64,000 nt of DNA from Psammoneis japonica (lineage: Eukaryota): the NCBI GenBank assembly GCA_008632985.1, contig QPGO01000034.1, positions 325,311 to 389,310 of the forward strand, given 5' to 3'. The position numbers and the translations under genes are program-made. This document shows, one piece after another, positions 26,185-49,506 of this stretch. Positions within the stretch are counted from its first letter, which is position 1; every line of letters begins with the position of its first letter. The notes beneath the pieces are model-generated. The model saw nothing but the letters and a program-made list of their open reading frames with translations, ran no database searches and had not been told where the DNA came from.

Positions 26185-26416
26185 GCTAAGTGTCTTGCAT
26201 CAATATGCACTCTTGTTGCTCATCACAATAGACATACGGTAACATTTTTCAAATGAGTGAAAAAGGTGAAATTGAGGTAAAAGTGGACTACCGTATAGCA
26301 AACTTTGTTAATGGTTGTATGTGTACGGTCATCATTGTCGCGCGTATTACAATTCTGATAACAACATTACGTGGAGCATGTGGTTCTAGTGTGTCGTGTC
26401 CTTCAACCCTGTGCCA

Positions 26417-27508: not shown

Positions 27509-27973
27509 TTTCGGGCGTCACTCTTTTTGTTGTGTCTTTCTTTTCGCTGCGGTGATCTTAGTGGTATCGTTGTTGCTGCTGTGTGTGTGTTTGAGGTCAT
27601 TACAGTGCCGAATGCCGAGTGGATGACGGATGGCGGAGGCGGAGGGAGTCAGTCGCGGAAAGAATAGAAGGCGGGGGGCCGGCGGGGGTAACAATAAAAA
27701 TGAAAAACATGGATGACGTCATTAAGTACGTTGAACCATACCAGAACTTGTGGTGACCGCGCTGGCTACTTACTTATGGTGTGGTATTAGGGGCCCTAGC
27801 TACTAGCAGGGGGGATGCGTCGGTGGGAGTTGGGAGTTTCACGTGCCCTTTATTTCTCTTGCCTCGTCGACTGCGACAGTCGACAGACGAAGCCACCGGT
27901 AAAACACAAAATAAAACAGCGCCCGGCCTTCTCCTGTATTCATTCTCTAACAAGCATACAGTACCAATAAACC

Positions 27974-28408
27974 ATGTCCTCCGGTAGAGACGCCGCTGGC
28001 ATTCGCGGATTCTTCTTACGTGCTGGACACTCATTTCAAGTCGGTGGCTCCTTCGCGAAAGAAACCGGAACTTGGTTGGCACAAAAGGCTGCTCGGATTG
28101 GATTGATTGTCGCAACCACTGCCATGGTAACCATGATGCCTCTACTACTGGAGATTGTGCGAGAAGGACAGGTGAGTTACTGTGTGCCGCTTGCACTATA
28201 GCCAGTAAGCTTGAAGAGTTGCTTGGGGATTTGTTGTGCTAAATTGCATGCTGCACTCGATTTGCTTCGTTCTAATCAGATGATCGAGACAGAGAGATCC
28301 CTGGTGAAGGATTACAGGGGGAAAGGGTACGCTGATAGGCAGCTTCTGGAAATGGGTTTCAGTGAAGCCTCCGTTCACAAACCATCGACTTTGCTCAGCA
28401 AGAAGTAG
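27974..28408 (+). CDS. Mitochondrial import receptor Tom22-like (short form)
   Basis: Exons 27974-28171 and 28280-28408; transmembrane segment IGLIVATTAMVTMMPLLLEIVREGQMIE with the conserved Pro and acidic C-flank. Confidence 0.7.
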
Positions 28409-28762
28409 TGTAGTGGGCATTGCGGGGTGTTAAGAATCCAGTTACCTGAAAGTCCTTCTTGCCAGTAGGTCGATAAGAAGACGAAACTTGGTTGATAGTG
28501 CTAAGCAGGAATGCTCTCTGCGCCTTTCCCAGTGACGGCATAGTAATTAGAATCTTTGTAATAGTAGATTCTAGCTCTCCGGAAGAAAACTGCCATGAAC
28601 TCAAGATGAACTAATGCTTGTCATGTGAGTACACAATGTGAAATAGAAACTTTCACGCAAAAAGCAGGATGATTCGCCATGCATGCGACTACTACTTTAC
28701 ATTTCACATATATACTACGGAAAGGGGTACCCCGCTCTAGACCATCAACTTTTGGGCGAAGC

Positions 28763-30104
28763 TCAGTTGAACAGAATGGCAAACACGACGGCAGCGATGA
28801 CCAAAACAATAACAATGATCCAGCTGTGTTTCAACAGACAGAACAGGATGTAACGTAAACGTGTGAGTAAAATGCATTCCACCTTCTTCTTTTATATTTC
28901 AGAAGACTCAGGAAGAAGTAAGAGAGTGGCTCACCATTGCTTCTTCCGAATTTTCCGCTGGTACTCCATAGAACGCACAAGGTCCACGTTGCCGTCATCG
29001 ACTGCTTCTGATGCCTTTTGGACATGCATTTCGATATGATCCAAAAGGTCGCCTTGTCCTTCAACAAGGAGCGCCACCTCAACAAATATTTGACGGAGCT
29101 CTCCAATGCTTCGCTCCAGAGTCATTATGTCCTTGTACTTTGAGCTTACGCTCTTGTAAGCGGTGCTTTCATGGACGAGTTACAACGAAGCAGTTGATGG
29201 TGAGGAATGGGAGATCCAGATATCAGCTCAAAGACAAAGTGACTCACTTGATTGGATCAGCGACACTGCCAGCTAAGATCGACTCCTTGTAAAGCGCGTC
29301 CCGCCCTCCATCGCTATGTATCACTGCATTGATGTCGGCGTCAGTCACGTCTGGCATGATAGCCTGTATTTGACGAGCGGCTTTTGACTTCATATCCACT
29401 TGATACATCTGCTGAGTCTTTTGATAAAGCTTCACTTCTTCGACAAACTTGCGGGTCAATGTATTGACAAGGTTCTCGCGAACACTACCGTGTGCCAATG
29501 AAGAGTAAGTGATGAATCAAAATCGTGAGTTTCTCGGTGGGAAAAGCGCTGCTGTACGGGGAAGGATTCTGCACATAAACTCTCACCGGATATTGCTCTG
29601 ACTCAGCTTGACTTCATGCTTCAACGTGGTTGTTTCTTCCTTCAGATGAGTTAAAATCTTCTTTGTGCGCTTTGCCATCGTGTTAGCTTTGCTAACTGTA
29701 GCTTCGAGACTTGTGCTGAGATTGTTTTCCTTTTCCGCTTTGCTTGCATTTATAGCTTCTTCGCTTATTTCACCTATACGATTGGATGCCTCTCTGATGG
29801 AATCAATGTTTTTCTTGATGATCTCAACGTCGCTGAAAAAGATCTTCATGTGCTGTTGGTCTGAGGTGCAACTAGTTTCATGCAGAGTCCCGAGTTCAAC
29901 GTCCCCGCAATCTTGCGATTTTTCTTGGGTCGTCTTCTTCTCACTTTCTTCTTCTTGACTTTCGCTTTTTCTATTGAAGAGGGGTTTCCACTGTTTATTT
30001 GGTTTCTTTGGCGGTGCCAACTTCTCTTGCATCTCTGAGGCACTATCCCGTCGCTCGTCGCTCCGCTCCTCGATGGAGTGAACATCAGCCAGCCGATCGT
30101 TCAT
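28763..30104 (-). CDS. Syntaxin (Qa-SNARE), paralog B
   Basis: Exons 30104-29587, 29484-29248, 29165-28935, 28823-28763. MNDRL start, VRENLVNTLTRKF, SNARE motif and transmembrane segment clearly homologous to paralog A. Confidence 0.9.
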
Positions 30105-30553
30105 TTTGACTTGTAATAGTCGATTTTATAGATAAGCGAAAAGTTTGTTGCTTTGCAAAATAGACGAGAGAATTCAAAAGCGCGAAATGAAATCAAGAAG
30201 TCTACCTCGCGTTTTGATTTGGTTTCAAAATGTGAGCATGACGAGAAACGAGAAAGCAAAAACGCAAATCCCCACCTGCACGAAGTCCCCCATGTCCGCG
30301 CGCCGGGTGCACCCTGCCCGACCACCCCACAAGCCGCTCCCAACTGTCTGACGGAATCTTTCTCCTGCCTTTTTTGTCGGTTGCTCTCTTTTTTACCTAT
30401 GTATGAGAGATATAAACATATATGTCGTGCCGGCGCGCGCAAGCTACAGCACATCAACTGTACAACATACAGTAGTGCTGTAGGTACAGTTAATGCCGTG
30501 CTGTACAGTACGTAGCCCCTAATGCTGTATGTGTCGCATGGGGCGAAGTGGTT

Positions 30554-31080
30554 TGCACCACCCGTCTCGCCAGTTCTCCTGCGGCCCTCTCTAGTTGCAG
30601 CATCTAGAGAGTCGCCGAAAAATTTTTAATGTGGTGGACTGGAATGGCTTCACTGGCAGATGCACAAGCCTCATTCCCACAAACCCAAGCTGGAGCGGCA
30701 GGGCCAGAGAGTGGAAGAGGTGGTGGGAGCGCGTCAAAGCCATCTGAGACGGCCTGCTGCTGCTCTTGGTTTGCTCTTCGGAAGAATGAGAAGAGCAAGT
30801 TGCTTTTCAAGAGAAAAATGGCCATTGCTCTCATTGCTCGCGCGCACGCATTCAAATTCAAAAAGGCCACAAATGACCCAATGGTCAGAAGGGGTCATTG
30901 CCTCGTCGAACTCCACGAGGTTGGTGGCTTGCACCACCCGTCTCGTTGGTTCTCCTGCGGCCCTCTAGCTGCAGCAACTGAAGCTGCAAAAAACATTCAA
31001 TGTGGTGGACTGGAATGGCTTTGCTGGTGGATGCACAAGCCTCATTCCCAAAAACCCAAGCTGGAGCGGCAGGGCCTTCC
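30554..31080. repeat. Dispersed repeat family in A-B-A arrangement, with further copies at about 50855-51052 (direct, B) and 52268-52470 (inverted, A + start of B)
   Basis: Shared strings ggactggaatggct...gatgcacaagcctcattccca...aacccaagctgga (A) and gaagaatgagaagagcaagttg...gaactccacgaggttggtgg (B). Confidence 0.85.
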
Positions 31081-31523
31081 AGCTCCAACCATCGTGCCGC
31101 GCACTTGAGGGCACGCACCTTTGGGAGGCCAGGGCGGGTGGGCCCGGCTGGAAGGCTGGGAGATCAGGCATCTGGCAGTTGTTGAGGATTCTGAGGAACA
31201 TTGGCATTTGGGTGGAGTGCGAAGTCTCCGCTGGCAAGCACGTCACGAGCGAAGTTGTGCATGACAGGTTCGGCCTGTGAATGAAGACAGCGCAACATTT
31301 CGTCTGATCTCCACAGGCCTGAGAGCCAGATTGGGTTGGTGTCAACGCAGGCACAAAGGAGGGCCATTGCGCCGGCAGCATGGAGACACCAAGCAGTGAT
31401 GTCTCTTGTGTTGAAACCAAAAGTGGCAGGGCCAAGAGCAGTGACAGCAGCGCGGAGCATGCTGGTGACATCGGCAGGGGACACTCATCACCAGGAGTTG
31501 TTTTTGAAGTGAGCACCCAGGGG

Positions 31524-33011
31524 CAGGGACATGAACATCCAGTCAGACGGGATGTGACACGCCCACGTGGCGGCTGCAGGGATCTTGTGCCCTTTGCGTT
31601 GATTTTGAGGTTCGTCCAATGCACACACACACACACAAAAATCAAATGTTAAAAATTGACACAGGCAATCCCTTTGACAGGCCAAAAGTGAGGGAAAACA
31701 AAAAATCAAACACCACGCAAATGTCACAGTGCATGCTGGGTTGGGGCTGCCAAATGTTCAGCCAAAAGTGCTCCAGCACCAGCAGTTGATTCCAAGAAGC
31801 CGCGGGATGACAAAGACAAAGGTGATGAGAAAGGTGCGCCCAACCCAGTGTGGAGCTGCACAGCTCGTGAGTGCAAAGCAGCTCAAAACAACCTCTGGTG
31901 CAGCAAGAAGGACAAGAAATGGCAGAGCCCACAACACCGGAATTACACTTTGTTCTTTTTCCTGCACAAGAGCGCACTTGAATCTTCACAATGGACCCAA
32001 GTTCATGCTGGCACTGCACTCCAATCAGTCTGACATCGAGGTCTCTTCTCCAGCATTCGTGGGTTTTGGCTCCACATTTGGAAAGATGCAACTGCACGGA
32101 AGATCGCTTCTTCAACAAAGGGTGACTCACTTTGGTGAAGAAATGGAATTAAAATTTGGAATTGCATTGGATGGGTTGCTGCAACAAAGAGATGCCAGGT
32201 GCGAAACATGCAAAGAACCTTGCCAATCTAAGTGCCGGTCGACGGAAACTGCCACTCGCCACAGACGCGGGAAACCAAGCCTGAGGAGAAGAAACAGAAC
32301 CAAAAAATTAGAAATGCACTGCATGGGGTGTGGCAACAAATGAAAGAGACACCAGAGATGCACCCTCTCACTTTGGTGCCGGTGCATGTCATGTGTGCCA
32401 CTCCTGCGATGGATGCTGAAAGTCGCTCGGATGGCTTTTTCACAACGCGGCATTTCTGAAGGAACCGAATTGCATTGTCAATTTAGTTGCTTTCACATGA
32501 GTTTCTTGCGCATGAGTTTCAATGAGCCACTGAAAAGAGAAAAAGGAAGACGATTGCAATGAGGGGCACGGCAAAATTTGACGCATCCAATGCAATGAAA
32601 TGCAGCAACACGACGAGAGGCGTTCGGCAAATGCTCACACACCACAAGAAGCAACAGATTGGAGCAGCAAGAGGAGCACAATTGCATTTTCAAAATGCAT
32701 TCACTCACAACAAGCCAATGGAGAAGTGAGTGCATCCGCACATGACCACGAGGGAGAGCAACAGTGGAATCACAAAGGAGAAAACAGCGGAACGAAGGCA
32801 TGTGGCATCATGTCGGTGTGAGGTGTGAGGTGTGCGTGTGCGTTTCAGTTTCCCTCACTTTTGGCCCATCAAAGGGATTGCCCGTGTCAATTTTTGACAT
32901 TGCATGTTTGTTCGTCTGCTGACATGTTGATGAACCTTAAAATCAACGCGAAGGGCCCATTTTTTTTGTGCCGCGTGTCACATCCCGTCTGACTGGACAT
33001 TTGTGTCCCTG
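31524..33011. mobile_element. TIR DNA transposon, about 1.5 kb and probably non-autonomous, with an 8-bp TSD (hAT-like termini)
   Basis: Imperfect TIRs of about 170 bp beginning CAGGGAC and ending GTCCCTG; identical flanks CCCAGGGG at 31516-31523 and 33012-33019. Removing it restores the YR frame (..SLDTPLGAHFKNN..). Confidence 0.9.
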
Positions 33012-33552
33012 CCCAGGGGAGTGTCAAGCGATGCACCATGAGTGCGCAAGTGTTTCACATGTCAGATGAGGGCTTGTGCAGGGCACAGGTTGGGGTGTCC
33101 TGACAAGCCAAGGCCTGATGCTTTGCCAGGGACTCCATTTTTTTTTTAGTGGTGAAGGTGAGGGTGGCAAAGTTTGCGGCATCAAGTTGCGCATGAGTGG
33201 CTTGAAACGTGTCAAGGTGCGCACCCCCTGAGGACAAGCATGTGCCGGCCAGCCAAAAGGGGGTTGCATTGGATGGCGCAGCCACATGTTCTCCCGGGCA
33301 AAGTGAGAAAAAGAAGGTGATGGCTGTCCTCATGTTGATGATGGCTTGCATGCCAGGATTGTTGCTGATGGCAGCGGCGCGCATGATCCACAGGAGGACC
33401 GCTGCTGGCACTGGTTTGACACAGTCAGGAGGTGGATCCTGCTTCTTGCAGTGACAGATTTGGTGGGCAAGGTGGAAATCCATGCCACCTTGGGATGTGT
33501 GGCGGGGATCCGGGGCCCCCATTGCAGCAAACGTTTGCCCAACCAAGTGCAC

Positions 33553-33828
33553 TGATGGAAATTGAAGGCAAATGGCAAGAATTCAAACAACAACTCCTTG
33601 CTGCTGTCTAAACAGCAGATGAGTCTCCGCTCAGAGACCGTCACAGGAGCCGAAAGACGTGTAAGTCGGTGTGATCGGGCCACTGTTGTTGTTCTTGTGA
33701 GCCTTGTGGCTCGAAAGCAAACTACATCGCGCGTGAACGCGCGGAACTAAAGCACACAAAACTGTGCGCGGAAAACTAAACAGCGCGCGATGCTTCGCGC
33801 GCATCCAAATCCTGTTCAAATCCTGTCA
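33553..33828 (-). repeat. 3' LTR of the Copia element
   Basis: Direct repeat of 40388-40663, same length, 14 nt mismatches by manual alignment. Confidence 0.95.
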
Positions 33829-36800
33829 CTCCCCAGTTTGCTTGAGGAGCCACAGAAACAGATTCGACTTCGGATGGAATGAAGTTCCAGAACATGAGGG
33901 GTCGGAGAAGGTCCCAGATTGGGGAGCAACCCCAATGCTTGCTGAGAATGTCAGCAGGGTTGCGGGAGCCTTCGATGAAGTGGAGCTCAAGGCAACCAGA
34001 GGCAATTGCCTCACGCACACGGTGGAACGATAGTGCGGTGTGTTGCTTGTGTAACTTGGAGTGCGGGATGGTGGCACTGTCTACAACCGACTTGTTGTCA
34101 CCGAACATGTAACTGACATTGCGGATCGGGACGCCAAGGCAGCGCAGGGTGATGCGCAGGTCGACAATCTGCTCAACACAATTCCTTGCAGCAACAAATT
34201 CAGATCCGCAGGTTGCAGTCTCCACGGTGGCTTGTTTCTTGGAGAACCAATCAGCCGGGAATTTGTTGAGGAAGTGGAGCATTCCCATGACAGAGCGCCC
34301 GGTGAGCATGCAATGGTGCAAGTTTGCATCGACGCAGTGGGTGGCAGTGACGAACTTGCCAAGGGGCGGTGGAGCGTCCTTCGGGATCATCTCTTCTGCT
34401 TCACCGTACACGGAATGCATCCATTCGTAGGCCGGAGCAGGGAGATCCGAATGGTCGGGCTCTTCCGTGCGAACGCGGAGAGCACCATGTCGCATCTTGG
34501 AGAGGCACCCACAGACGCGTTTGGCACGATCCAAGTGGCCTTGACGGGGCGCAGCTCGGAAGCTAGAGAGTGACATGACGGCCGTGGTGATGTCAATTCG
34601 ACCAAGGGACACTGCCCATTGGAGTGAACCAACAAGAGACTGGAACTTGTGAATGCCATCGGGTCCCAGCAGTTCGGAAGTGTCCAGTTCGGGGTGGTCA
34701 CCCTTCTCTAGAGGTGACAGGGCGTTGGTGGCAGGTTTCTCCCCAAACAGTCGGGCGTAGCTGTCGACCATGCGCTCGATGTACTTGCGCGGAGACAGGC
34801 ACAAGGTTCCGTCGGGGTCCCGGGAAAAGTCGCAACCCAGATGGAACTCAATGGGTCCCGCACCCTTGAGCTTGAACTTGTGCTTTTCCGTGAGAGTGTC
34901 GACGAAAGATTGAGGGTCCTTCATGGCAATGGCGAGGTCATCCACATAAACGGCAATGTGTTCACAGTGGTCGCCGTTCCTGCGCATCCAAATGTCGGGT
35001 TCGGCGCGGCAGGGGAAGAAGCCTTCAGCTCGCAGGCAGTCGGCAAAGCACTCGTGCCAGCGGAGACCGGAGCTGCGGAGTCCATACAGTGCCTTGTGGA
35101 TGACAAGGATGTGTCCTTTGAGTTTGCCAAATTCGGGTCCAGCTACAATGTAAAGCTTCTCCTTGGTGGTGGCTTCAAGGCAGGCATTGCCAATGTCGGT
35201 GGCCCATGTCTCCAGCTTGTTGAGTTCGGCCAGGAAAATCATCAGCCGAAGGCCACGAAGGGAGACTGCTCCGGAGTAGACACTGTCGACAGGTACGTCC
35301 GTGAGGTGCCCGTCGGCTACGAGTCGTGCCTTGTGGCGACCGTCGTGTTTCACGTCGCACACCAGGTGCACTCGGATCTTCTTGTGTCCCGCAGGAGGAG
35401 TGGAAGACTTGAAGGGCCCGCAGTCATGGAAGACTTCGTATTCGTCGAGTTGGTCCATCTCGAGATTAGTTGCGTCTCCCCACTTGCGGTTGCCGTTGCG
35501 TTCGTCTGGTGACATGGCGTGTTTGTAGTTCCGGGGAACTTCGTATCCGCACTTGTGGCGAGGTGCAGTGCGGAAGGAGCAAAGCTTGGCTTGGTTGGCC
35601 ATGCGAAATAGCTTCTTTTGGCGCCTCGCGATGGTGCGGAACCGCTTCCATCCATCCGTGTCGAGGAGTCCGTTCTCTCGTGCATAGATGGCACAGGTGA
35701 CGGGGTCGTCCTTGGCGATGATGGCAAGAGGCTCGGACGTGATCTCCCCACTTTCCCATTCAAGCATGATGTTGTAGCTTGAGCCTTTCCAGGTTGGGTC
35801 GTGAGGCTTCAGAGGGCCTTCGTGTGACACGATGCGTCGAAATTTCCAAATGGTGGTGTCTTCGTCTTCTTGCTCAATGTGATTCATGATGTCATTGTGG
35901 GCAAGGACTTCCTCGCATTCGTCATTGTTGACAGAGCAGACGAACTTGGTGAGCTCGGGATTGCCGTTCACTTTCCATTCGTGGTCTTCGACGGCCTTGA
36001 CGATGCGAGCTCTGTGGCGTTGTCCGTCCTCTTGTGGCTGCATGAGGAAGGTACGTCCAATGATGTCTTGCAGATCGAAAACTGGCATCTTGGGTGTCCT
36101 GATCTCCCCATCAGGAGAATCGACGGGGTTGTCGTCATGGCGAGATTTGATGATGGGTTCAGGTGGCTCCCCATCAGGAGGATCAAGACGCAGGTTTCGA
36201 ACGGCAGGATCGGGGGTGGCGGAGCGAACGTTGGACCGGCAGAGGATCTTCTGAGTCTCGTCAGATAGAATCTTGAAGGTCATCTGGTGGCCGACGTGCT
36301 CAGCAATGCCAACGAAGCGTCCACGCAACTCACGAGATTCGGACGGCCAATCGGAGTCATCGAGGTGGAAGTGCACTGGTTCCCACCAGTGAAAGCGAAG
36401 CAATGGGCTGATGTCCGGGGTGGATCCAGTGAGAGTCTCGAGGGGCGTGCGCCAGTGGAGACGTGGGGATGCTGCATGGTTGAGCATGAAGCACACGTGC
36501 ATGAGCGCCAGCAGCCATGTGTGGGCGGGCGAACCAAAACGGTCCATGACAGTGTTCGCCATGCGCTTCACAGTCTGGTGTCGACGCTCGGCAAAGTTTT
36601 GGTGTTGCTGGTGAGGCTCACTTTGCCAGCTGGAGATGAAGAGGGCGCGTAGGATCCCGAGCACTTTGTTGCTGATCTCAACTTGAGCACGGTCGCCAAT
36701 GAGTTTGGATGGGGCACCACGTTCACGGATCTGATCCTCGAGTGTGTTGACAAACTCTTTGTCCGTCTCAGTGCCGCAGACGTCAGTGACGGTAGACTCG

Positions 36801-39475
36801 GTGCCAACAAACAGTTGGGCGCTGGTGCAACCAGAGTCGACGGCCGGGGTGTCGGCACAAACGGTGTCAGTGGCGATGGGCTCGTTGCGACGGTGCACAT
36901 TAAGGGCGGGGTTGGGTGATTTGAAGGCCTTGCGAAGGTGTGCACCGGCGGGCATGCGGGCGCACTGCGTGGTGCAGTCAAAAGTACGACGGACCGCATC
37001 GGCAGGCAGGAAGCCAAAGTGAGGCCGAAGAGACTCGAAGGGGGGGTCCTTGGGCTGCACAGTGCGCTCCGGAGGTGGAACGTCATCGCCCTTGGGGTCA
37101 ATCGCATGCAGATGACACTCGTAGAACACGTCGTCGTTCGGAATGAGGTGATCATCGAGGGCGGACGCGTGATCGGCAGACAAGGAAGCGGACAAGATGG
37201 TCTCGTTGACAACGACACGGTGACGGCAGTTGCCGCATTCATCAAACAGGTTGGCAGTGGGATCGTCCTGTTTGTCAGAGATCGCGTCGCACCACTGGTC
37301 ATCGTCAGTGACAGAGTGATCGAGGACGGAAGGGTCCCATGTGTCATCACCGGTGAGGATGACGTGGGGCAGGGTGTCCCATTCGGCGTCAGTGTAAGGT
37401 CGCATGGCAACACAAGGCAGGCCAGCCTTGATGTCAATGGGGATGACACAGCCATCAGGAGTGGCAATGCGTTGCAAACCGTTGGGCACCTTGACAGAGC
37501 GATCGTTGACATCCTGTTTGCACCATTCGAGCTGGCCGCAGGAATGGATGGTCTTGCCCTTTCCCGTGCATGCGCACTGATGGAGGATGGCGATGACGGG
37601 ACCACGCTGGGTCTCAATGACGGCACCAGCGGTGACAATGGGGATGTCCACCAATTGATGATCGTCAATGCCCTGAACGTCGACTTGGCGAGAGGTGCGT
37701 GCGATGACGCGGACGTCGTCGCCAGCAATGCCGCCGTTGGCCCCACGATCGACTAGAGCGCCAGTGCGTGTGGAGCGATGAGCAGAGGCAGAGCAAATGA
37801 CATTGTGGTTGTCAACGCGGCGGCAAGTGCGGCCGTTAAGTTCCATGTCATCTGCAGAAGCTGGCGGGGTAGAGGAAGCGGCGGATGGCCCCGGTCGACT
37901 GGCATTGGGGGCTTGGTTAGGAGACAACAGACGTTGCAGATCACCGGGTGGCAGTGGCTTGCGCTTGGTGAGGTGCGCCAGGACAGGATTGTCCGAAATG
38001 GCGTCCACATGTGCAGCGGAGTCACCACAGTCAGCAGGAGTCGTGTTGGACAAGTTGACATCACCGTCACTCCCAAGGTGTTGGTCGTGAAGGTTGGCCG
38101 TAACAGACTCATGGCAGTTGCTGGCTCGCGGGTTGCGGGGAGGCGGACGAGAGTGCTCAAGGATGATTGCCTTGGAGGAATCGGGCAACAAATCCCAGAG
38201 CCGTTGGTGGTCGGGAGGGAGACGTCTCCATTGGACACCGGTGAGGCTGGGACCACGGGTGCAGGCAGCATTGGCTTGAAGGACGTCAACGTCGCTGTCA
38301 ATGTCGTAGAACACATCGTTGGACGGTTCCTCGGAGCAGACGTCGTGTGCGCACATGGCGCGTCGGGGAGCTCGAGGTGTCGTCTTGGGTTGAAATGTGC
38401 TGTCGCACTGAGCTGCCGCGGAGAGGAGCAAGCCACAGCATTGATCGCATGTGAGGCTCTTGCCACTCTGCGTACGATGCTGATCAGCTTGGTTCTTGAC
38501 AGCACGGAGTTCCTCGACAGGGTGCACGGCATTCTCGAGCATGACGCGCTTCTGTCCTTCAGAGAAGTGGTCGCTGGCGGGGATGAGTGCCTCGCACTTG
38601 CGCAACTGATCTTGCCAATGAAGGATGAACCCGTGGGTCGGACCTTTCCAAGTGCCATCACCAAGACGTGCGGTGGTGAGGTGCGTGAGCAGGGTGGAGG
38701 ACTCGATGGATGCACGGGTGGAGGCAAGCGCGCATTCAGACAAGGAGCGGTGGACGGTCTGTGCGCCAGAGGACCCCACATTTTCGCGAATGAGAGCCTT
38801 GCCCTTGTCGGTGAGAAGGATGCGTTCGAAGACGGCGAACATGCACTTTTGCTGTTCAGCAAAGAGCAGTTTGTCTTCGGGGCTGGTCGGTTTGTACGAC
38901 GAGTCTAGAATGCACTCGACGTCTTGGGCACGGGCTTGTGCCACAAGTGAGGTGTGCCAAGTGTGCCACTGCTTGTCGGATTTGAGAGCCGTGAAAGCGG
39001 TGGGATCACGCTTGATGCCTCGCTTGAAGTCTCGCACCGGGTCGCGTGCCTTGGTCAGGTTGGTGACATGTGGAGGTGCAAGGGGTGAGCTGCCGATGGA
39101 CAGAGAGGACATGCAGTCCGGGCTGAGGCGGTGGGCAAGGAACTCGTCATGCGCGAACAAAGAGGAGTCATTGGCAACGTCAAGACCTTTGTGTGCTTTG
39201 ACAATGTACAGGCTAACTGGTGCTGCTAACATGTTCTCATAACCACGGGGCAAAGGGATTACATTGGTGCCGTTGTCGCACTCAAGCGAGTCGATTTGGG
39301 ACGGCATGAACGTGAACAGTTCCTGACACGAGTCCGTGCCGTCTTGGGCCAAAGCCAAACGAAGAGGACTCCCAGCACCTTGGGCAAGCACGGTTCCAAC
39401 AACGTGCTCGAAACCATCGGTTTGTTGCTGACGAGTGAGAACCATGGCAGACAAAAGTGGTGTCAGGACAATCAA
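33776..39475 (-). CDS. Copia gag-pol polyprotein, open but heavily missense-mutated
   Basis: PR ALVDRGANGG; IN ATDT..GDRAQVE..QNFAERR; RT KHDGRHKARLVADG, KALYGL, AVYVDD; RH VDANL, ETATCGSE, GDNKSV, NPADILSK. Confidence 0.93.
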   Translation of the reverse strand: MIVLTPLLSAMVLTRQQQTDGFEHVVGTVLAQGAGSPLRLALAQDGTDSCQELFTFMPSQIDSLECDNGTNVIPLPRGYENMLAAPVSLYIVKAHKGLDVANDSSLFAHDEFLAHRLSPDCMSSLSIGSSPLAPPHVTNLTKARDPVRDFKRGIKRDPTAFTALKSDKQWHTWHTSLVAQARAQDVECILDSSYKPTSPEDKLLFAEQQKCMFAVFERILLTDKGKALIRENVGSSGAQTVHRSLSECALASTRASIESSTLLTHLTTARLGDGTWKGPTHGFILHWQDQLRKCEALIPASDHFSEGQKRVMLENAVHPVEELRAVKNQADQHRTQSGKSLTCDQCCGLLLSAAAQCDSTFQPKTTPRAPRRAMCAHDVCSEEPSNDVFYDIDSDVDVLQANAACTRGPSLTGVQWRRLPPDHQRLWDLLPDSSKAIILEHSRPPPRNPRASNCHESVTANLHDQHLGSDGDVNLSNTTPADCGDSAAHVDAISDNPVLAHLTKRKPLPPGDLQRLLSPNQAPNASRPGPSAASSTPPASADDMELNGRTCRRVDNHNVICSASAHRSTRTGALVDRGANGGIAGDDVRVIARTSRQVDVQGIDDHQLVDIPIVTAGAVIETQRGPVIAILHQCACTGKGKTIHSCGQLEWCKQDVNDRSVKVPNGLQRIATPDGCVIPIDIKAGLPCVAMRPYTDAEWDTLPHVILTGDDTWDPSVLDHSVTDDDQWCDAISDKQDDPTANLFDECGNCRHRVVVNETILSASLSADHASALDDHLIPNDDVFYECHLHAIDPKGDDVPPPERTVQPKDPPFESLRPHFGFLPADAVRRTFDCTTQCARMPAGAHLRKAFKSPNPALNVHRRNEPIATDTVCADTPAVDSGCTSAQLFVGTESTVTDVCGTETDKEFVNTLEDQIRERGAPSKLIGDRAQVEISNKVLGILRALFISSWQSEPHQQHQNFAERRHQTVKRMANTVMDRFGSPAHTWLLALMHVCFMLNHAASPRLHWRTPLETLTGSTPDISPLLRFHWWEPVHFHLDDSDWPSESRELRGRFVGIAEHVGHQMTFKILSDETQKILCRSNVRSATPDPAVRNLRLDPPDGEPPEPIIKSRHDDNPVDSPDGEIRTPKMPVFDLQDIIGRTFLMQPQEDGQRHRARIVKAVEDHEWKVNGNPELTKFVCSVNNDECEEVLAHNDIMNHIEQEDEDTTIWKFRRIVSHEGPLKPHDPTWKGSSYNIMLEWESGEITSEPLAIIAKDDPVTCAIYARENGLLDTDGWKRFRTIARRQKKLFRMANQAKLCSFRTAPRHKCGYEVPRNYKHAMSPDERNGNRKWGDATNLEMDQLDEYEVFHDCGPFKSSTPPAGHKKIRVHLVCDVKHDGRHKARLVADGHLTDVPVDSVYSGAVSLRGLRLMIFLAELNKLETWATDIGNACLEATTKEKLYIVAGPEFGKLKGHILVIHKALYGLRSSGLRWHECFADCLRAEGFFPCRAEPDIWMRRNGDHCEHIAVYVDDLAIAMKDPQSFVDTLTEKHKFKLKGAGPIEFHLGCDFSRDPDGTLCLSPRKYIERMVDSYARLFGEKPATNALSPLEKGDHPELDTSELLGPDGIHKFQSLVGSLQWAVSLGRIDITTAVMSLSSFRAAPRQGHLDRAKRVCGCLSKMRHGALRVRTEEPDHSDLPAPAYEWMHSVYGEAEEMIPKDAPPPLGKFVTATHCVDANLHHCMLTGRSVMGMLHFLNKFPADWFSKKQATVETATCGSEFVAARNCVEQIVDLRITLRCLGVPIRNVSYMFGDNKSVVDSATIPHSKLHKQHTALSFHRVREAIASGCLELHFIEGSRNPADILSKHWGCSPIWDLLRPLMFWNFIPSEVESVSVAPQANWGVTGFEQDLDAREASRAV

Positions 39476-40387
39476 TTCTGGTTGGGAAGCGAAGGCAGAC
39501 TCGAAACTTGGGTGAGAATGGACTTGACTTGAAATGGACTTGACTTGAAATCTTGAACTGTCTTAAAATCAGAAGTCGCCGGGCTTTGTTGTCCCGTTCG
39601 TTGTTGGGTGCTAAACTTCCTGTCCGGACCGCAGAGTTGTGCCAGCACGTCCGAACCCGCAGCCAGCGGCGCTTTGGGTTGCTTGCGAGCGGAGCAGCGG
39701 GTTGTAAACCCCTGCAGGCAAGCTGACTAGAGGTGGACAAGACCCCCGAACCGTTCTTGTTTTACATCGGTTGGATTTCCCGATCAGGCTGGCCAGTTGA
39801 CGCAGGCGTCAGGCGCTGTGGACGAACGAACAAACGCGGGAAAGCACCCTCGCCCCAACGCAGGCTGCAATCACGGCTGCTTGCTCTCACAGTCGTCCTC
39901 GTGGACCTGGCAGAACTGCAGAGCACCAGCAGTCCGGGGCAGATCAGGTGCAATGGACTCGGTGTGCTTGCAGAGTGGCAGCAAAACCGCAGTCCGAAGA
40001 GTGGATAAAGGTTCTTGGCCGTGAAGACATGCATGTGTGTGTGCATGTCTTCAGCGACTAAGATCCTTGAACATGTGGGGTTCTTGACCGTTGACCGAGG
40101 AATGGGCATGTCAAGGGATGTTGATCAAGGATAGACTTGGATATGACCGTTGAACATAAGTCTTCAGCGATCAAAGGTGGCACAATCAATCCAGATATCC
40201 AGCGGTAAGGAGACTTGACGGTGACGTTAACTTCCTGCCGATGCCCTGGCCATTGAATGCGCGTAGACTTGCCGATGTATGTAGAACATATACGGAGGTC
40301 CACGTAGAATTGAAATAGCGTCGTTGGCAAATCAACGACGACGATGGCGGTTGCTCAATGGGTTGACAATGAGCAAGACTGTTAATC

Positions 40388-40663
40388 TGACAGAAATTGA
40401 AGGCAAATGGCAAGAATTCAAACAATGACTCCTTACTGCTGTCTAAATGGCAGATGAGTCTCCGCTCAGAGACCGTCACAGGAGCCGAAAGACGTGCAAG
40501 TCGGCATAATCGGGCCACTGTTGTCATTCTTGTGAGCCTTGTGGCTCGAAAGCAAACTACATCGCGCGTGAACGCGCGGAACTAAAGCACACAAAACTGT
40601 GCGCGGTAAACTAAACAGCGCGCGATGCTTCGCGCGCATCCAAATCCTGTTCAAATCCTGTCA
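40388..40663 (-). repeat. 5' LTR of the Copia element
   Basis: TGACAG...CTGTCA termini; direct repeat of 33553-33828. Confidence 0.95.
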
Positions 40664-43600
40664 TGCACGGCATCCTCAGCGGTTTGTCCCCAGATGGGAT
40701 TGCCAGGGGGTGCAAGTTCTCCAATGTGGCATCAGTGGAGGAAGACTTGGAAGAAGACAACTGGATCTTTGATGTCTTTGAGGAGTGGGTTGATGGCCAA
40801 AGTGGTGCAGAAGTTGCGCCACTTGCCCCAATGGGTGTTGGTGGCAGAGGCTCTTGAAGAGGTGATGCCGAGTTGCACAGCATGTTGAGCAGTGTGGAGG
40901 TCATGAAGGAATGCAGTTCTGGTGGTGGCATGCAAAGACGCCAGGAGAGTGCATGTGGACAACACAACATGTCAAAGTGGGACAAAAACTCACGGTTGGA
41001 GAGATGCTGCAGATGAGAGGCATCATCGGCAGCGGTGTTCAGGTGACCAGGCCAGCAGCTGTGGAGGCCAACATGGTGGTGACAGCATTGGTGCAGTGCT
41101 TGGAACTGGAGGAGTTTGGTGGTGGGCTTGATCATTGTGGTGGAACCCTTGTGTTGCCAGTGCATGGTGCAGGAGTTGTTGGTGCATGACAGGTTGGTGC
41201 GCTCCTGAAGGTCAAAACAGTCTGAGGCACAGTGGGGCTGGGTGACACTGCCGGCAAGTTCCAGGTCTGTGTTGGCAATGGGGCCATGTGGGTTGGAGCA
41301 TGTGGATGGGCGGTTTGTCGCTGCCTTTGGAAAGGGGAGTTGCCACACTGTGGGACCCGCGTTGTGTTGGCGGTGGCCCCTGCCATTGCCAAATTGGAGA
41401 GTGGCAGTGCGCGGTGCAGTGGCGGCTGTGGGGAGGAGGACACCTCTGGCACCGTGGCTGGCTGCATCATGGCAGCCAGCAAGAGTGGGCTGCAATGGAG
41501 CCAACTCTTGGTGGAGTTTCAAGTGTGGATTTGAGCTCTTGAAAATCGTCAAGTGCGGCATGTGCACCAGTGACAATTTGGACCCATGAGTCCGGAGTGG
41601 TGTGTCGGAGATTTTCTTGCAGCTCTGAGCAGAGACCCCGAGAGCCAGGAACAGCAATTCCTGGCAAAACCAGAGCTCCCCAAGAAGCTTGTGATGCTCT
41701 GTGACGGTGGCCCGTTTGTGGGTGTGGGGAAAATCCTGGTGCAGCACAGTGTGGAGTCTTGCTCAGCATTGTGCCATGAGGCAAATGGTCATGGAATGGG
41801 CATCAATGAGCCAGCCAAGAACTTCTTTCTCTGCAGACCAAGTTGCATCACCCTGTTTGAGCTTTTTGATGGAGACAGGCTCTTTGCGGGTGGGAGCATC
41901 TTGTGTGTTGAGTGGTCGGAAAACATCATCAAGGGCCCAAAGGATTGTACGATGTGCTTTGCGACGGGCACATTTTGATCCTTGTGCAGCCCCAATGAAA
42001 TCATCAGCACAGTTCAATGCATTGGAGGAGGCGGCGGCGTGCATGGTTGAGATGCGGGTCAGGCACAGATGGCAGTGGAATGGCATCTTGAGTGCATGGC
42101 CGTGGTGGTTGGTGCTTTGGTGGGCAGCTGTCCAAAAGGTGTTCGAGTGGGAGAGGTGGTGCTTGAACATTGCAGAGGAGGTCCTGACTGGCAAGATCTG
42201 CAACAGTTTCTGCTGCTGTGCAGAAAAGTGGGGGTGAATTCGCCCAACCCATTGGCAGTTGGATTGGAAGGGCGACAAGTGGTGGTTCCCCAGGCAAGTT
42301 GGGAAACACGACACCCAACAGTGGCACTCCATTGGGTGCCAGTTGCGTGTGATGGTGGCCATTGGCTAGATCTGTCTTCATGATGTAGACCTTGCCCTTC
42401 CTTGGGTCTGCAAGGAGGATCCGGTGTTGAAGGCGGTCAAAGGCCCATCCAAACTGCATGGACTTGACGGCTGTGTTGGGCTGTGTGGCAGGGTTAAGAC
42501 CACAGAAGGTGTGGCTGACAACAGGCCTGGGTTGGCGGCCATGTTGTGGGACAACACCAACAGGACTGAGAAGCAATGTCGGGTTGTTGTGCACTTTGGC
42601 ACATGGGACCACAATCCAGAAGCCTTTGTCAACCATGTCGGCCATGTCATCTGGTGGGATCTCAACATGCTGGCAGGCAGATTTGTGAGGTCCCCCATTG
42701 ACACTGGCATCTGGCTCAGCTGATGTCCAGGGCACGTCTGCCACAGTGACGGGCGTGCCCCTGTGCTTGCAGGCGCACAGCAGGCGGTGTGCTGGATGGC
42801 ATTGTGTGTTGTTGTGTGGCTGGCCCCAATCACCTCGACCGCTGCACAAACGCAGCAAGCAGCTGAGTCCTTGGTGATGCAAACAGCAGCATCATTGGAA
42901 ATGTGCTCACCCAGTTTGTCACTGTGAATGGTGGCAGTGACATCCTGTCCACGAGCAGTGGGGCAGGTGCTCTGCCTCTTGAAACTCTCTGCAGTCGGGG
43001 GTTGTGGATGCAACAGTGCTGGAGCTTTTGCTGGGAGAGGCTCTTGGCACCAAGTCCCTGCACTTGGACCATTGCCAAAGACCCATTTGGTCTTCCAGTT
43101 TTCCTCCCCCCAGGCCAAAAAGCATGCCTGTTCCACCTCGGTGTGGTTGTTGTGGTGATCATGGCTTGCACCGCAGTTGGTGTTGCACTGGCCTTTGATG
43201 TGGTGTGGGTTGCAGTGCACGCGGCCTTGATCATCTTTGGGGAGGTCAATCCCTTTGCGGGCACAGTGTTGCTTGACTTCACGGGATCACACATTGGGGC
43301 GGTCATGCAGTGGGGCAAAGCACTCAGGTGCAGGCGGTGGAGTTGGGAGATTGGGAGCGAACGCTGCTTGCGAGATGGGTTGGGCTGGTTGCATTGATGC
43401 AAGCAGACTCCAGTGCCAATGCAGGGTGCCTTTTGCTGCTTCTAAGACAATGCCAAGAGGTGTGAAGGGGACCGGCTGGTCGCTGGTTGCCTGCGTCTTG
43501 AGCCAGTGTCAGATCTCCACCTGCACACAGCATTGAAAATTGGCTGGCAGCGTGGGATGGTGCAAGCACTGGATGGCAAGCTCATTCATGTGTCTGTCCA

Positions 43601-44329
43601 CATCCATGCACTGTCAAGTCAACCACTGCAGGATGGGATGGTTGATGCCAAGTGCAGCAGAGAACACGAGCCGGCAGCCATCATGAGATTGCTGGGTGGC
43701 CTGCATGGTGGTCGCAACGAGAGCTTTGTCTGGTGCATCCAGCAGTTTGGCATCCTGCAGCCACAAGACTCTGGCACCCCCGTGAATTTGAGCACACATG
43801 GAGTTGCGACAGGTGATTTGCTCAGCACATTCCGGCATGGCAAGTCCAAACATGAAGGGGTCAATGCCTTGTGTGGGCTCGTCTGTGGCATCCACGAACT
43901 CGGCCAGAGCAAACTGTCCTCTTGTGAGGTCACCAACTGTGGTGCAGGTGTGGCCATCCCACGGCTCGGCAGGACCCACCAATGTTGCAGGACATGTCAA
44001 CACTTGATGGAGGGCTTGAATTTGGCCCTCACCAGCTGCATCATTGGCTTGACAGTGTGCATGACAATGGCCATGGGCTGGTTGTGGCTTGACGCAGCTG
44101 CAACACAAGCATGCAGGGTGCCCGGGTTGTGCTGCAACTGGCCCTGAACTGGCACGGCAAAATCCAACATGGCTTCACCACAATTGCCTTGGTGGGGGTC
44201 CTTCGCTGCTGCATGACAGCAGTCCTGATGTGTCTGAATGACCGGTGGTGCCACTGGGGCAGCGGCTCCTGCTGGTGGAGGTGGAACATCTGGGACGCCA
44301 ACAATCTGGGTCTGACCGTCTGCCACAAT

Positions 44330-45760
44330 CTGGGTGTTTCTTGACTTTGATGCCAGATCATTGTCAACTTGTGAGCCAATTCTCTCCTTAAATGTGACAC
44401 AAGAACCCCAATTGACATTTGCGGTTTCTCGTTCTTTCAACACAAATGTTGCCACTTGTGATCCACCCTCCTTTTCCACCAACTTGTCCTGCATTTTATC
44501 TCTTTGCCATGTCATTTTCAAATCCAAGTTCCCAATTGCCACACGTTCTTGCATCTGAACCGCATTGCAGAATGTTTTTTTTTATTTTCACTCATCCAGA
44601 TTTCATTGTTTGTTTCAAATTGCGTTTGCACACCAGTTTGGTTGGTGGCCATTGCGGCATTTGCCACCACTCTCCGTTGCCTGCAGCCACCACCTGCAAT
44701 GGCAGGTCCTCTCCCATCGGCGCCGCCCATCCTCCCTCTCTCTCCTTTCTTTTTTCCTCTCTTTTGCATTTCTTGTTTTCCTCCTGAGACAAGTTCATCT
44801 TCTCTTGCCTTCTCTCCTTGAACCATGCACAGAATCCCTGGCTGTTCTCTCTGTCTTTCACCACCCACTGACACAGATCACTGCACTTCTTGATCCCCTC
44901 CTTGCTCCATCCTTGGCTCCTCTTTGCCAATTCCCCCGCCGCCTGCGCTGTGCACTTTGCAGGAGCAGCATCTTTCACAGTTGGCTTTCTTCTCCTTGCA
45001 ACATTTTCTTCCTTTTCCAATTTCTCTGCCGTGTCCTTCACCTTGTTGCAGCAGCTCAAGTGCGCTGGCAGAGCAAACACCTTTGATGAAACAGAAAGCC
45101 ACTCCTGAAGCGTGTCGGCTGTGCTTCCACCAAACTGCGCTTGTCCCACCACCGTTGGCACCACAGTTTCCAAGAACCACGCGTGTGTGTCCTTGTCATT
45201 TCTCCCCTTTATCAAATCTTTGCAATCCACCAGCGATTCCTCTAAAGCAGCAACTGCACAGACAAAAGCAAAGGAAGCAACACTCATCCCGTCAGACAAT
45301 CGCCTCCAACACAATCAATGGCATGCACACATCTGCTTGCCTGTCATTCTCCTCCTGATGTTGTCCTGCACATTGTTCCTCTTTTGGTTGAGTTTGGTCC
45401 TGAACACCTCTTTGCATTCTTCCCAGAACGCCTCCGGTGAAGACGCCATGCTCCTCAACTCCTGCAGAACCAATTTCATGCAATCTCCTCCTGCGGCAAG
45501 CTCATGATTGAAGATTGTGAACTTGCGACATGGCCAAACACTCTCACTGATGACCTTTGTCAACATCGATGCCATCAATTTCTCGCCCACTGCTGGCGCA
45601 TGATCCAACACAAGACATCCCTCTGTGGGAGTCACTGCCGAACTTGAATCCCCACCTGCGCACTGGAATCTGTTCAATCCCCCATGTTCGTTTCTTTGTG
45701 CATGCAACAAGGCCGCCACCACAGGACTCATGGTGACTTCATGTGACACCACACAGACAA
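44330..45760 (-). pseudogene. Degenerate transposon-associated ORF of unknown family
   Basis: FWEECKEVFRTKLNQKRNN, WFLETVVPTVVG, LSVSSKVFAL, GWSKEGIKKCSDLCQWVVKDR look like a decayed protein. Tyr-free; family not established. Confidence 0.45.
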
Positions 45761-46712
45761 ACCCAATTCTGTCAGTTCATCAGCAACTCTTTGTCATGTC
45801 CTTTCTCAACCTCACTTGCCGCTGGAAGTCACACTTCCTCCCTCCGTTGCTCCTGTGAGAACTGCATCCTCCATCTTTTTTACCTCCCCAATGGCTTCCT
45901 CTTATTTGGAACTTCTGTCCTTTCCTGTCACTTTGTGAAAGGTGAGTTGCAAAATGAACGCACTTTGCATGTGATTTTCTCGTTTTTGTCGTTGCTCGTG
46001 TGTCCTCTCTCGATTCAAACAGGTCTTTGCATCATTTTTGAGTGCTCATTCCCAACCCCATGTTTGAATTTCTATCAACGTTCCACTGTTTTGAATTGTG
46101 CACCTTTTTTTGCCAATCCAACACACCAATGAAGATTGCAACATCATTTGAATCAATGTCAAACAATGTGTTGCATCTCCTCATGTCAAGGCATGCATTG
46201 CGCCTGCTTCCTGATGCAACATCTGTTTCATTTGGTTTGTCAAGTCGTGTCAAACCTCCCATTTGTTCACACAAATCCATGTCGCTCATTGTCTCATGTT
46301 AATTTGTCCCTGTCTCAATGGGTCATTCTCTCTGCTTCCCCGATGCCATGTCTCTCCAACTGCTCTCTCTGTTGCCCAAATTATCCAATCTACTTTCAAT
46401 GGCTGCCAAAGGGTGTCATTGTCACCAAGATGTGGTTGTTGTGAGTCGTTCCCATTGTGGGAATGCGCGTTCCCTCCGCTGCAATCATGTGCTGCCAATT
46501 GATGATCAAATTGGTCGTTTTGCTGGTGGTGGTGTGGAATCACACAGTGGCGCGGCAAGCTTTGCCTTCTTCACCGAGGTCATTTGTAACCCCGCTCTCC
46601 TTGAGGCCCAAATTCGAAGCCCTTTTAATTTCCTCGACGTTGGTGGTGGTGTTGGCGGTTTTGCGATTGCCTGTCGTTTGCTTGTTCCTGCCTGCAATGC
46701 CTGCAGCATTGA

Positions 46713-46918
46713 GCTCCACCACCCCTGTCATGACTTGGGCTCTCAGTGGTGCAATGCCATCTGGCATGACCACACCAGTTGCTGTCCCACCCTGATCAAT
46801 CAGGACTTCCTCTCTGCTCCACCACCCCTGTCATGACTTGGGCTCTCAGCGGTGCAATGCCATCTAGCATGACCACACCAGTCACTGTCCCACCCTGATT
46901 AATCAGGACTTCCTCTCT
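46713..46918. repeat. 103-bp tandem duplication
   Basis: gctccaccacccctgtcatgacttggg...aatcaggacttcctctct occurs twice, with four differing sites. Confidence 0.92.
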
Positions 46919-48736: not shown

Positions 48737-49506
48737 ATGGTGCCCAGTCTTTTTTTTTTTAAGTGGAACAGACCCAATTCAGCGAAAGTCCGCATCCATT
48801 GCTGTGCAACAAAAACGGCTTTCTCGCGAAACATGTGTTGCCAATGGCAGTCCATCTGTTGGGTGCACCACAGACATTTTTTTCATAAATGGTCCCCTGT
48901 GACATGATCTTCGTTGATCCTGTTTGCTGCATGATCTCATCAAATGGGTCATCCCAGCCATCTCAAAAGCACAGAAAACAATTTTGTTGCACACTGTCTT
49001 GCCAGTGTTGTTGTGAGACATTTTCATGTCGCCGCCGCGGCAGACACAAAGGAACAGCCACCATCCACCATTCATTCCGCACCACAAACAAACTCTTTTG
49101 AAAGAATGCATGCAATGAACAATTGCCAATGACAGGCATCACTTTTTTGTCAATGCACCCATCTGTCAACAGAGCAATTTGGTGTCACTTTTTTGTTGTT
49201 GCAACTGTGTGTCAACAAAGTGATTTGGCATCACTTTTCCATTGTTGCGCACACTTGTCAACAGAAGAAGTGTCAGTTTTTTGTCAATGCACACATCTGT
49301 TGATGCATGCCTTTGGCATGTTTGTGCACTCAATGCCAGCCTGCACATCATTGTGACATGAAGCACATCTCCCGCAGCAAACCACATTCTCCCGAATCTT
49401 GTCCAAGTTGCTGATCAACTCATGTTGAGCAGCAAACAGACAACGTTTGGGCAACTCTGTCTCTTGTCCTCCGCAGCCTTGTCATTCCCTTTGCAAAACA
49501 ACAGCC

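Follow-up and report, generated by a model that had tools for sequence, protein, structure and literature searches.

Tyrosine loss in a Copia retrotransposon and depletion of TpA in transposon-filled domains of a diatom genome

The Copia element and the domains around it

The window analysed in this study, by which we denote the whole stretch of 64,000 nucleotides taken from contig QPGO01000034.1 of the diatom Psammoneis japonica, contains a complete Copia long terminal repeat (LTR) retrotransposon, in whose polyprotein cysteine and histidine are found at many positions that are occupied by tyrosine in related proteins. The element extends over 33553..40663 on the minus strand (7111 bp) and is nested in an older DIRS-like element, both residing in one of three domains of the window that are depleted of the dinucleotide TpA. 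Its LTRs of 276 bp with TG...CA ends (3' LTR at 33553..33828 and 5' LTR at 40388..40663, both on the minus strand) are 94.9% identical and they are bracketed by two copies of a target-site duplication, which reads TGCAC on the plus strand (33548..33552 on the left and 40664..40668 on the right). The RVT_2 reverse transcriptase (RT), the direct TG...CA LTRs and the 5-bp target-site duplication are features of the Ty1/Copia group. The polyprotein is encoded by an open reading frame (ORF) at 33776..39475 of the minus strand, which translates into 1899 amino acids without internal stop and matches the Pfam family RVT_2 (PF07727) at residues 1361-1572 (E=4.6e-26, 92.3 bits vs a cut-off of 31.6). 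The start coordinate of this ORF, which had been given slightly off as 33830 in the initial annotation, is 33776. With a GC content of 57%, the element exceeds its flanks (about 48%).

The insertion site of Copia is found inside the tyrosine-recombinase gene of the DIRS-like element. The RT/RNase H region and the first ~100 residues of the recombinase are contained in 40664..42891, and the rest of the recombinase, corresponding to residues ~102-391 of its relatives, in 31164..33547, both on the minus strand. In tblastn searches with the respective relatives, minus-strand matches were obtained for RT/RNase H at 42891-40692 and for the recombinase at 40962-40663 and 33543-31173, and both activities reside in one DIRS-like element. 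Neither its RT nor its tyrosine recombinase was recognised in a Pfam search. Around the element, we observed one inverted match between 30635-30799 and 52421-52264 with 80% identity.

The composition of the window changes between host DNA and three depleted domains. Domain 1 (8870..14263), whose family was not recognised, contains 20 TA and 40 CG in 5394 bp, and is thus depleted of both TpA and CpG, as is domain 3 (56934..64000), which reaches the end of the window and contains 19 TA and 53 CG in 7067 bp. The TpA-depleted domain 2 (30628..52933, 22.3 kb) comprises the DIRS-like element, the nested Copia and further sequence. No match in domains 1 and 3 or in the region of 43-53 kb was obtained by tblastn with the relatives of Copia, the recombinase and the RT. 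In a 1-kb profile of the three domains, the observed-to-expected ratio (o/e) of TpA ranges between 0.02 and 0.28, with one 1-kb interval at 0.37, and CpA and TpG are found at 1.3-2.06. Within domain 2, the values in the region 40664..42891 amount to 0.02-0.06 for TpA and about 0.35 for CpG, and those in Copia to 0.12-0.37 per kb for TpA; its CpG o/e of about 0.8-0.96 compares to 0.0-0.7 in the older blocks. The host gene region at 14265..30627, which serves as internal control, shows TpA at about 0.58 of the expectation (about 0.4-1.1 per kb) and a CpG o/e of about 1, and a host island of 4 kb (52934-56933), which is located between two depleted domains, is unaffected. Mapped by single TA steps, the edges of the domains are sharp, to a resolution of tens of bases.

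Tyrosine replacement in the polyprotein

The scarcity of Tyr in the polyprotein, which had been noticed in the initial annotation, is confirmed in a comparison with 85 full-length relatives that are 60-71% identical and that originate from unnamed marine metagenome proteins. With 20 Tyr, 58 Cys and 87 His in its 1899 residues, the share of Tyr of 1.05% is below the range of the relatives (2.86-4.47%), whereas the shares of Cys (3.05% vs 0.47-1.28%) and His (4.58% vs 2.71-4.24%) are both above their range. The corresponding codon counts are TAT 4, TAC 16, TGT 11, TGC 47, CAT 21 and CAC 66, the codon ATA is absent and the TpA o/e within the ORF is 0.18. The identity of the replaced residues was examined in 38 alignment columns, in each of which 80% or more of the relatives contain Tyr. 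In these columns, the polyprotein contains 11 Y, 17 C, 7 H, 2 F and 1 W, and Cys and His thus account for 24 of the 27 conserved Tyr that have been lost. We have searched the 85 relatives for Cys or His at the same positions, and found a different pattern: among their 3230 cells in the 38 columns, 207 are occupied by residues other than Tyr, which are mostly F (128), followed by H (30), W (15) and C (8). At most three Cys or His are found in these columns in 84 relatives. The remaining protein from a marine metagenome, P0116, contains 7 Cys, which constitute all but one of the Cys cells of the set, and 4 His, and with 2.86% it defines the lower end of the range in Tyr share. This sole relative with the described signature is only 61% identical to the protein of the window and therefore belongs to another lineage and perhaps to another host.

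The same conclusion is reached from the seven motifs in which Cys or His had been proposed to stand for Tyr. All seven are found in the polyprotein, and six of them contain replaced columns with Tyr in 77-85 of the 85 relatives. The Cys of GNACLEA corresponds to Tyr in all 85 proteins, the two replaced columns of DHCEH to Tyr in 83 and 82, the second Cys of RVCGCL and the respective positions of ETATCGSE and LRCLGVP to Tyr in 83 each, and that of KHWGC to Tyr in 77. The first Cys of RVCGCL is located in a column that reads Y45/V20/C17, and Cys is thus natural at this position in 17 relatives. The seventh motif, LVCDVKHDG, is ambiguous, with a column containing F59/Y26. That the Copia lineage would use Cys and His for Tyr as a natural feature of its protein, for which the frame of 1899 open codons could be taken as support, has in our view a negligible probability, in light of the Tyr found in the relatives at the quoted motifs, the presence of TA in other copies of the same genome, and the occurrence of the same change at non-coding positions of the LTRs; an open frame is also expected of a process that does not create stops.

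The replacements of Tyr by Cys and His are those that would be introduced by transitions at TpA. In total, 86 residues are replaced among 742 conserved columns, 32 of which can be explained by a single change of TpA. These include the 24 Tyr, three cases of T>A, and one each of K>E, S>G, L>P (CTA to CCA), V>A (GTA to GCA) and I>M (ATA to ATG), with T>A, K>E and S>G spanning codon boundaries. The remaining 54 replacements consist of 23 transversions, 19 that require at least two changes, 6 of CpG type and 6 other transitions; most of these probably reflect the divergence of the lineage from relatives that are only 60-70% identical. The initial annotation had predicted that substitutions of this kind would dominate the spectrum, and although they form its largest single class, they do not constitute a majority. 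Tyrosine stands out as systematically replaced because it is the only residue that contains an in-frame TA in each of its codons.

A second consequence of the genetic code concerns stop codons, since the conversion of TpA to CpA or TpG can neither create TAA or TAG nor a new TGA, and existing TAA and TAG are removed in three out of four outcomes. A damaged copy therefore keeps its ORF open, and the uninterrupted 1899-codon frame provides no evidence for a functional copy. We thus consider the Copia copy very probably dead despite its open ORF. This property is reflected in the composition of the saturated blocks, where TAA and TAG, nearly absent from both strands, are found at 1.8 and 0.8 per kb, as opposed to 7.7 and 10.1 in host DNA, and where ORFs of at least 120 residues are 1.8 times as frequent (2.82 vs 1.54 per kb). 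The long and spurious ORFs of this size, 78 in 27.7 kb (8870-14263, 30628-33552, 40664-52933 and 56934-64000), are distributed over all six frames. At its 3' end, the polyprotein ORF extends 53 bases into the 3' LTR (33776-33828). The ends of the relatives are variable and located at query residues 1870-1899, with 75 out of 85 terminating 10-29 residues earlier than the query, which would be consistent with removal of an ancestral stop (TAA or TAG) through this process.

Equivalent replacements are found in the DIRS-like element. In its tyrosine recombinase, the Tyr of the catalytic motif reads Cys (MLRCLH) in a column that contains Tyr in 119 of 120 relatives, and invariant Arg residues read His or Trp. 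In its RT, CADD replaces a motif of the YVDD type, which among 136 relatives reads YVDD in 59, FVDD in 40 and YMDD in 11 cases and contains Cys in two. Both readings of the initial annotation in this element thus hold. Its interpretation, which assigned the conversion of Tyr to Cys and His to mutation of TpA and not to the decay of CpG, is supported by the protein relatives described here and by the LTR pair, other copies of the family and the balance of dinucleotides.

Timing, context and confinement of the change at TpA

Since both LTRs are copied from one template, the differences between them have arisen after their duplication. In 277 aligned bp, the pair contains 14 differing columns, which correspond to nine events: five doublets with CA in one and TG in the other copy, three single changes with TA opposed to CA or TG, and one transversion. 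Thus, 13 of the 14 columns are A:T-to-G:C transitions, the remaining one being the transversion. A CA-versus-TG doublet points to an ancestral TA, in which mutation affected the T of one LTR and the A of its partner. In total, eight of the nine events fall on inferred ancestral TpA. Four TA steps have survived in both LTRs, and the 21 CpGs of the pair are all identical in both copies. No C-to-T difference between the LTRs was found outside of ancestral TpA sites in the 277 aligned bp. Taken together, at least 13 out of 24 lineage-sites with detectable ancestral TpA have changed, compared to one difference at about 250 other columns, which, as order of magnitude, suggests a rate at TpA that is some hundreds of times the rate elsewhere in the LTRs. 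The intact CpGs in a young Copia despite the heavy loss of TpA indicate that the process acting on TpA is separate from, and much faster than, CpG decay. As a control, we compared two inverted and diverged host paralogues at 24969-25688 (+) and 29583-30125 (-), with 67.8% DNA identity over 242 bp, and found a single CA/TG doublet among 76 differences. In four repeat pairs of the old element, we counted 8 CA/TG doublets and 19 CpG-type single changes, besides 18 other transitions, 22 transversions and 40 indel columns.

The conversion is uneven along Copia, as TA steps survive in the leader and the remaining Tyr cluster in one part of the protein. The leader following the 5' LTR (40052-40551) contains 18 surviving TA, compared to 2-10 per 500 bp elsewhere in the element, and 9 of the 11 retained conserved Tyr are located at residues 1234-1690.

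The LTR pair also bears on the question of whether the changes could have been introduced prior to integration, in the course of retrotransposition, either by an ADAR-like activity on double-stranded RNA or by a cDNA deaminase. ADAR and APOBEC enzymes of animals, whose substrates are RNA or the cDNA formed in replication, cause clusters of deaminase-type transitions in retroelements and viruses that resemble the ones described here, but leave the LTR pair alike. In this case the LTRs differ, with CA opposed to TG at five sites, whereas editing of RNA would yield identical copies. Moreover, sequence that is not of retroelement origin is affected as well, and the C-to-T changes that would be characteristic of APOBEC are absent from the young Copia. 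A change of A to G with a preference for a 5' U preceding the edited A is a signature of ADAR (10.64898/2026.01.13.699255), and the Copia family is, as detailed below, very large and diverged. However, the depletion is stronger in the DIRS-like element, in non-coding parts and in other blocks, all of which share sharp edges, and it affects both strands to about equal extent. In this respect, plus-strand counts of CA and TG per kb are nearly the same, and no asymmetry linked to transcription or replication was found. For Copia alone, the editing of cDNA after synthesis of both LTRs would still be conceivable; as explanation for the window, we regard editing during retrotransposition as quite improbable.

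Further copies of these sequences were sought in public read data of the same organism, which consist of four runs from one sample and one study with no library type on record. Contigs assembled from run X1 match the host part at 28001-30298 exactly, and, with 0-2 differences, five listed pieces of 321-1046 bp from the depleted DIRS-like element. Their word depth of about 44-68 is equal for host and depleted DIRS-like pieces and corresponds to a single copy. Contigs that match Copia at a likeness of at least 90% are found in large number (13,633), with a summed word depth of 70,000-144,000, which does not equate to a copy number, and show that the family is very large and diverged. Compared to the window, these X1 sequences contain transitions at 64 (A>G), 72 (C>T), 83 (G>A) and 66 (T>C) places, and transversions at 42 places in all. 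Among the 40 best-supported variable sites, beyond which there are 293 more, other copies contain TA where the window contains CA or TG at 17 and the reverse is found at three; several of the best-supported sites are adjacent TG/CA pairs. As a separate observation, one X1 contig (depth 46.6) joins position 33546 to 40665 with two letters in between and thus displays the site without Copia, which either corresponds to an empty allele or to a paralogous DIRS-like copy.

The same data argue against an artefact of sequencing or assembly, in which modified bases at TpA and CpG would have been miscalled by a long-read base-caller. Such miscalling would account for the joint loss of both dinucleotides in the same blocks, and there is a place where window and reads disagree: at 30450, 30452 and 30477, the window reads CA, CA and TG, whereas the sole covering X1 contig (733 nt, depth 51.9) contains TA at all three sites. 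These sites, located within 28 bp and about 150-180 bp outside the edge of domain 2 in TA-rich surroundings, could be allelic, as result of recent clustered TpA events at the edge of the domain, or reflect a difference in assembly. A miscall, however, would neither explain the agreement of read-derived contigs with the depleted DIRS-like pieces at host-like depth nor the thousands of distinct contigs of the Copia family with different states. Additionally, the LTRs show opposite outcomes in identical context, which is unlike the behavior of a miscall that is driven by context. An artefact is thus highly improbable.

The extent of the conversion in the depleted blocks is reflected in the balance between lost and gained dinucleotides. 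With the density of host DNA as baseline, which was used for this and the following context analysis, the number of missing TA and CG compares to the excess of CA and TG as 454/521, 177/190, 152/210, 871/878 and 614/602 in five blocks, which corresponds to an agreement within about 15-40% in small and 1-2% in large blocks. A pronounced feature of the process concerns its dependence on flanking bases. In the saturated blocks, TTAA survives at 0.70 of its density in the host, followed by CTAA/TTAG at 0.24, CTAG and ATAA/TTAT both at 0.10, and GTAA/TTAC at 0.07, whereas the other five contexts are found at 0-0.03. The half-converted Copia exhibits the same order, with 0.53 for TTAA and 0.14-0.19 for contexts in which the step is preceded by A or followed by T. 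At N-TA-A sites, N-CA-A is gained and N-TG-A is little gained, which identifies the A of TAA, or equivalently the T of TTA, as refractory partner. The ratio of Cys to His among the Tyr losses in the polyprotein is 17:7, and mutated Tyr codons that are preceded by T have resulted in Cys in three out of three cases, which, although small in number, fits the rule that N-TA-A converts to N-CA-A. The process is thus specific for TpA, acts on either strand and after duplication of the LTRs, spares TTAA and is confined to transposon-filled domains with sharp edges.

These features have to be weighed against a passive origin, where a lesion or mispair that is specific for TpA would remain unrepaired in compact silenced chromatin in the absence of any dedicated system. 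Candidates for such lesions would be oxidised thymine, such as 5-formyluracil pairing with G, or a UV-induced T-A photoproduct, and transposon domains would gradually shift from TpA to CpA/TpG. The domains coincide with transposon-rich and probably silenced DNA that also loses CpG, and, as the site is palindromic, a change at A cannot be distinguished in the sequence from a change at the paired T. A regional bias of this kind would, however, be difficult to reconcile with the extreme contrast at edges that are sharp to tens of bases, and with a young element in which more than half of the TpA have changed, yet all CpGs of the LTRs and all but one of their other positions are intact. The strong influence of flanking bases, with a survival of 0.70 for TTAA compared to 0-0.03, suggests recognition by a protein, and a comparable process in another alga described below is active in only some lines. 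We thus consider a passive bias as unlikely. GC-biased gene conversion among copies was rejected as it is not specific for a dinucleotide.

Mechanism, precedents and other features of the window

Collectively, the data are best explained by a very fast, TpA-specific transition that acts after integration in transposon-filled domains of this diatom genome, a reading which we regard as probable. In this process, one of the two bases of TpA, either T or A, would change to yield CpA or TpG, equivalent to one A:T-to-G:C transition on either strand, and the converted step would cease to be a target. Copia would represent an intermediate stage, at which about two thirds of the TpA that are susceptible have been converted, and its older neighbours would be saturated, with CpG also lost. 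By analogy with a proposal for the alga Bigelowiella natans that is described below, the most likely chemistry would be the deamination of adenine to hypoxanthine in 5'-TA-3' by an enzyme of the TadA/ADAT type acting on DNA. The natural substrate of TadA/ADAT is A34, which follows the invariant U33 and thus forms a UA step, and the chemistry of adenine deamination would fit here too. We infer that the process may serve as enzymatic genome defence against silenced foreign DNA and thus as functional analogue of fungal repeat-induced point mutation (RIP).

Several points weigh against this view or restrict its reach. The host baseline stands in only roughly for the ancestral composition, and only large contrasts are reliable in this respect, and the contrast in rate between TpA and other positions of the LTRs depends on a single difference outside TpA. 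The assembly was probably derived from the runs used for confirmation, which are hence not independent with respect to organism or data set, and the proposed link to silencing or defence is drawn from the sequence of one window. In the older blocks, the loss of TpA is accompanied by that of CpG, and the bias towards a CAA outcome seems to concern both, as would be expected if one process were to act on both palindromic YpR steps, an assumption that is not the simplest. Finally, the process is patchy in nature and not general to diatom-like hosts, since the DNA of metagenome relatives of Copia at two loci has normal TpA (o/e of 0.59 and 0.60, with low CpG), and since P0116 is the only one of 85 relatives that displays the signature. 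The loss of CpG in older blocks is most simply accounted for by ordinary decay of methylated CpG as a separate and slower process, which is also reflected in differences of CG versus TG or CA between old repeats. Methylation of CpG in LTR elements has been documented in Phaeodactylum tricornutum (PMC2806351, PMC9998398). The conversion of Tyr to Cys or His cannot result from such decay, and neither can it account for a young Copia with intact CpGs.

Fungal RIP shares several features with the process described here, but has the opposite direction. Both act after integration on repeated or foreign DNA by transition hypermutation with a dinucleotide preference, leave a footprint with sharp edges and kill the genes of transposons. 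RIP converts C to T (CpA to TpA), and it thus creates TpA, lowers the GC content and introduces many stop codons. In contrast, TpA is depleted, GC is raised and the ORF is without stops in the elements described here, whose composition is thus not that of RIP.

A closer precedent is found in a preprint on the chlorarachniophyte Bigelowiella natans (Mettrop et al., bioRxiv 10.64898/2026.01.13.699255), which describes the hypermutation of TpA in integrated DNA of nucleocytoplasmic large DNA viruses (NCLDV) and virophages. In mutation-accumulation lines of this organism, 230 of 231 mutations in giant-virus and virophage regions were A>G or T>C, with the GC-biased mutations all located on TpA at a rate of about 6e-7 per site and generation, compared to 3.5e-10 elsewhere (10.64898/2026.01.13.699255). 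The rate at TpA is thus about 1000 times the background, only some of the lines are active, and the authors propose the deamination of adenine by an ADAT2-like enzyme (10.64898/2026.01.13.699255). The two systems share a near-exclusive change of A:T to G:C at TpA that yields CpA or TpG depending on the strand and that affects only integrated foreign DNA, a long-term depletion of TpA with enrichment of CpA and TpG in clustered 1-kb intervals, and, by indirect estimate in our case, a rate that is orders of magnitude above background. They differ in host and target, which is a rhizarian with viral insertions in one case, and a stramenopile with an LTR retrotransposon, a DIRS-like element and other repeats in the other. 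They also differ in the degree of depletion, with a TpA o/e of 0.02-0.1 near saturation in our case compared to 0.45 within the NCLDV region in B. natans, and in the accompanying loss of CpG in older blocks, a dinucleotide that is not mentioned in the text available from the preprint. Whereas the rate was measured directly in B. natans, it is indirectly estimated from an LTR pair in our work. Transposable elements are named only as possible targets in the available text of the preprint and diatoms are not mentioned (10.64898/2026.01.13.699255).

In a full-text search, which had subscription journals and preprint supplements outside its scope, we obtained no publication on TpA hypermutation in either diatoms or retrotransposons, and a TpA-specific A:T-to-G:C mutator of the kind proposed here for transposons was found described once, in the 2026 preprint on the chlorarachniophyte. 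What is new is thus that a process of the B. natans type occurs in a lineage far removed from this alga, acts on targets of another class and is near saturation. Its footprint in retrotransposons of a diatom implies that the process is neither peculiar to one alga nor limited to viral insertions. Two distant carriers can now be set against related elements from other marine samples, in which the footprint is not seen, and the responsible gene thus becomes accessible to a comparative search. More tentatively, we propose a chromatin-guided defence by DNA editing in diatoms or at least in this one, in which adenine would be deaminated at TpA on either strand with TTAA being spared, over whole transposon domains and at several hundred times the background. 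The presence of such a defence in a stramenopile and a rhizarian would point to an old system that extends throughout the SAR supergroup (stramenopiles, alveolates and rhizarians). If true, this defence would constitute the mirror image of RIP in fungi, raising GC without ever introducing stop codons, the responsible enzyme could be identified by comparison of carriers with non-carriers, and the defence would provide a natural precedent for context-specific editing of A to G in DNA. For annotation, our results carry the warning that the open frame of a transposon does not indicate activity in such genomes, that the abundant long and spurious ORFs are a trap for gene callers, and that heavily edited elements escape detection by Pfam.

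A Pfam search of 81 ORFs of at least 120 residues in the depleted blocks returned only weak PhyH and zinc-finger matches. One of these, a 280-residue ORF at 47939-48778 (-), is weakly related to phytanoyl-CoA dioxygenases or 2OG-Fe(II) oxygenases (PhyH E=2e-5). With an Atlas feature score of 0.88, which we take as a lead only, it might either have been carried as cargo by a mobile element or represent a host gene in decay. Weak C2H2 zinc-finger matches are contained in an ORF at 49510-50181 (-) of the same depleted domain.

The genes of the host region are long and intron-poor ORFs and their sequences are diatom-like. They include a gene for deoxyhypusine hydroxylase at 26420-27508 on the minus strand, whose nearest named proteins originate from the diatoms Fistulifera solaris (63%) and Epithemia (60%), with no match above 68%. 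The region of this gene is flanked by the two paralogous ORFs used as control, which share a similar N-terminal sequence. Finally, a contig of run X2, which is listed as 'DNA?', skips 108 bases at 28168-28277 with GT..AG ends, and spliced RNA from a host gene is thus probably present in this run, although none of the runs is listed as RNA.

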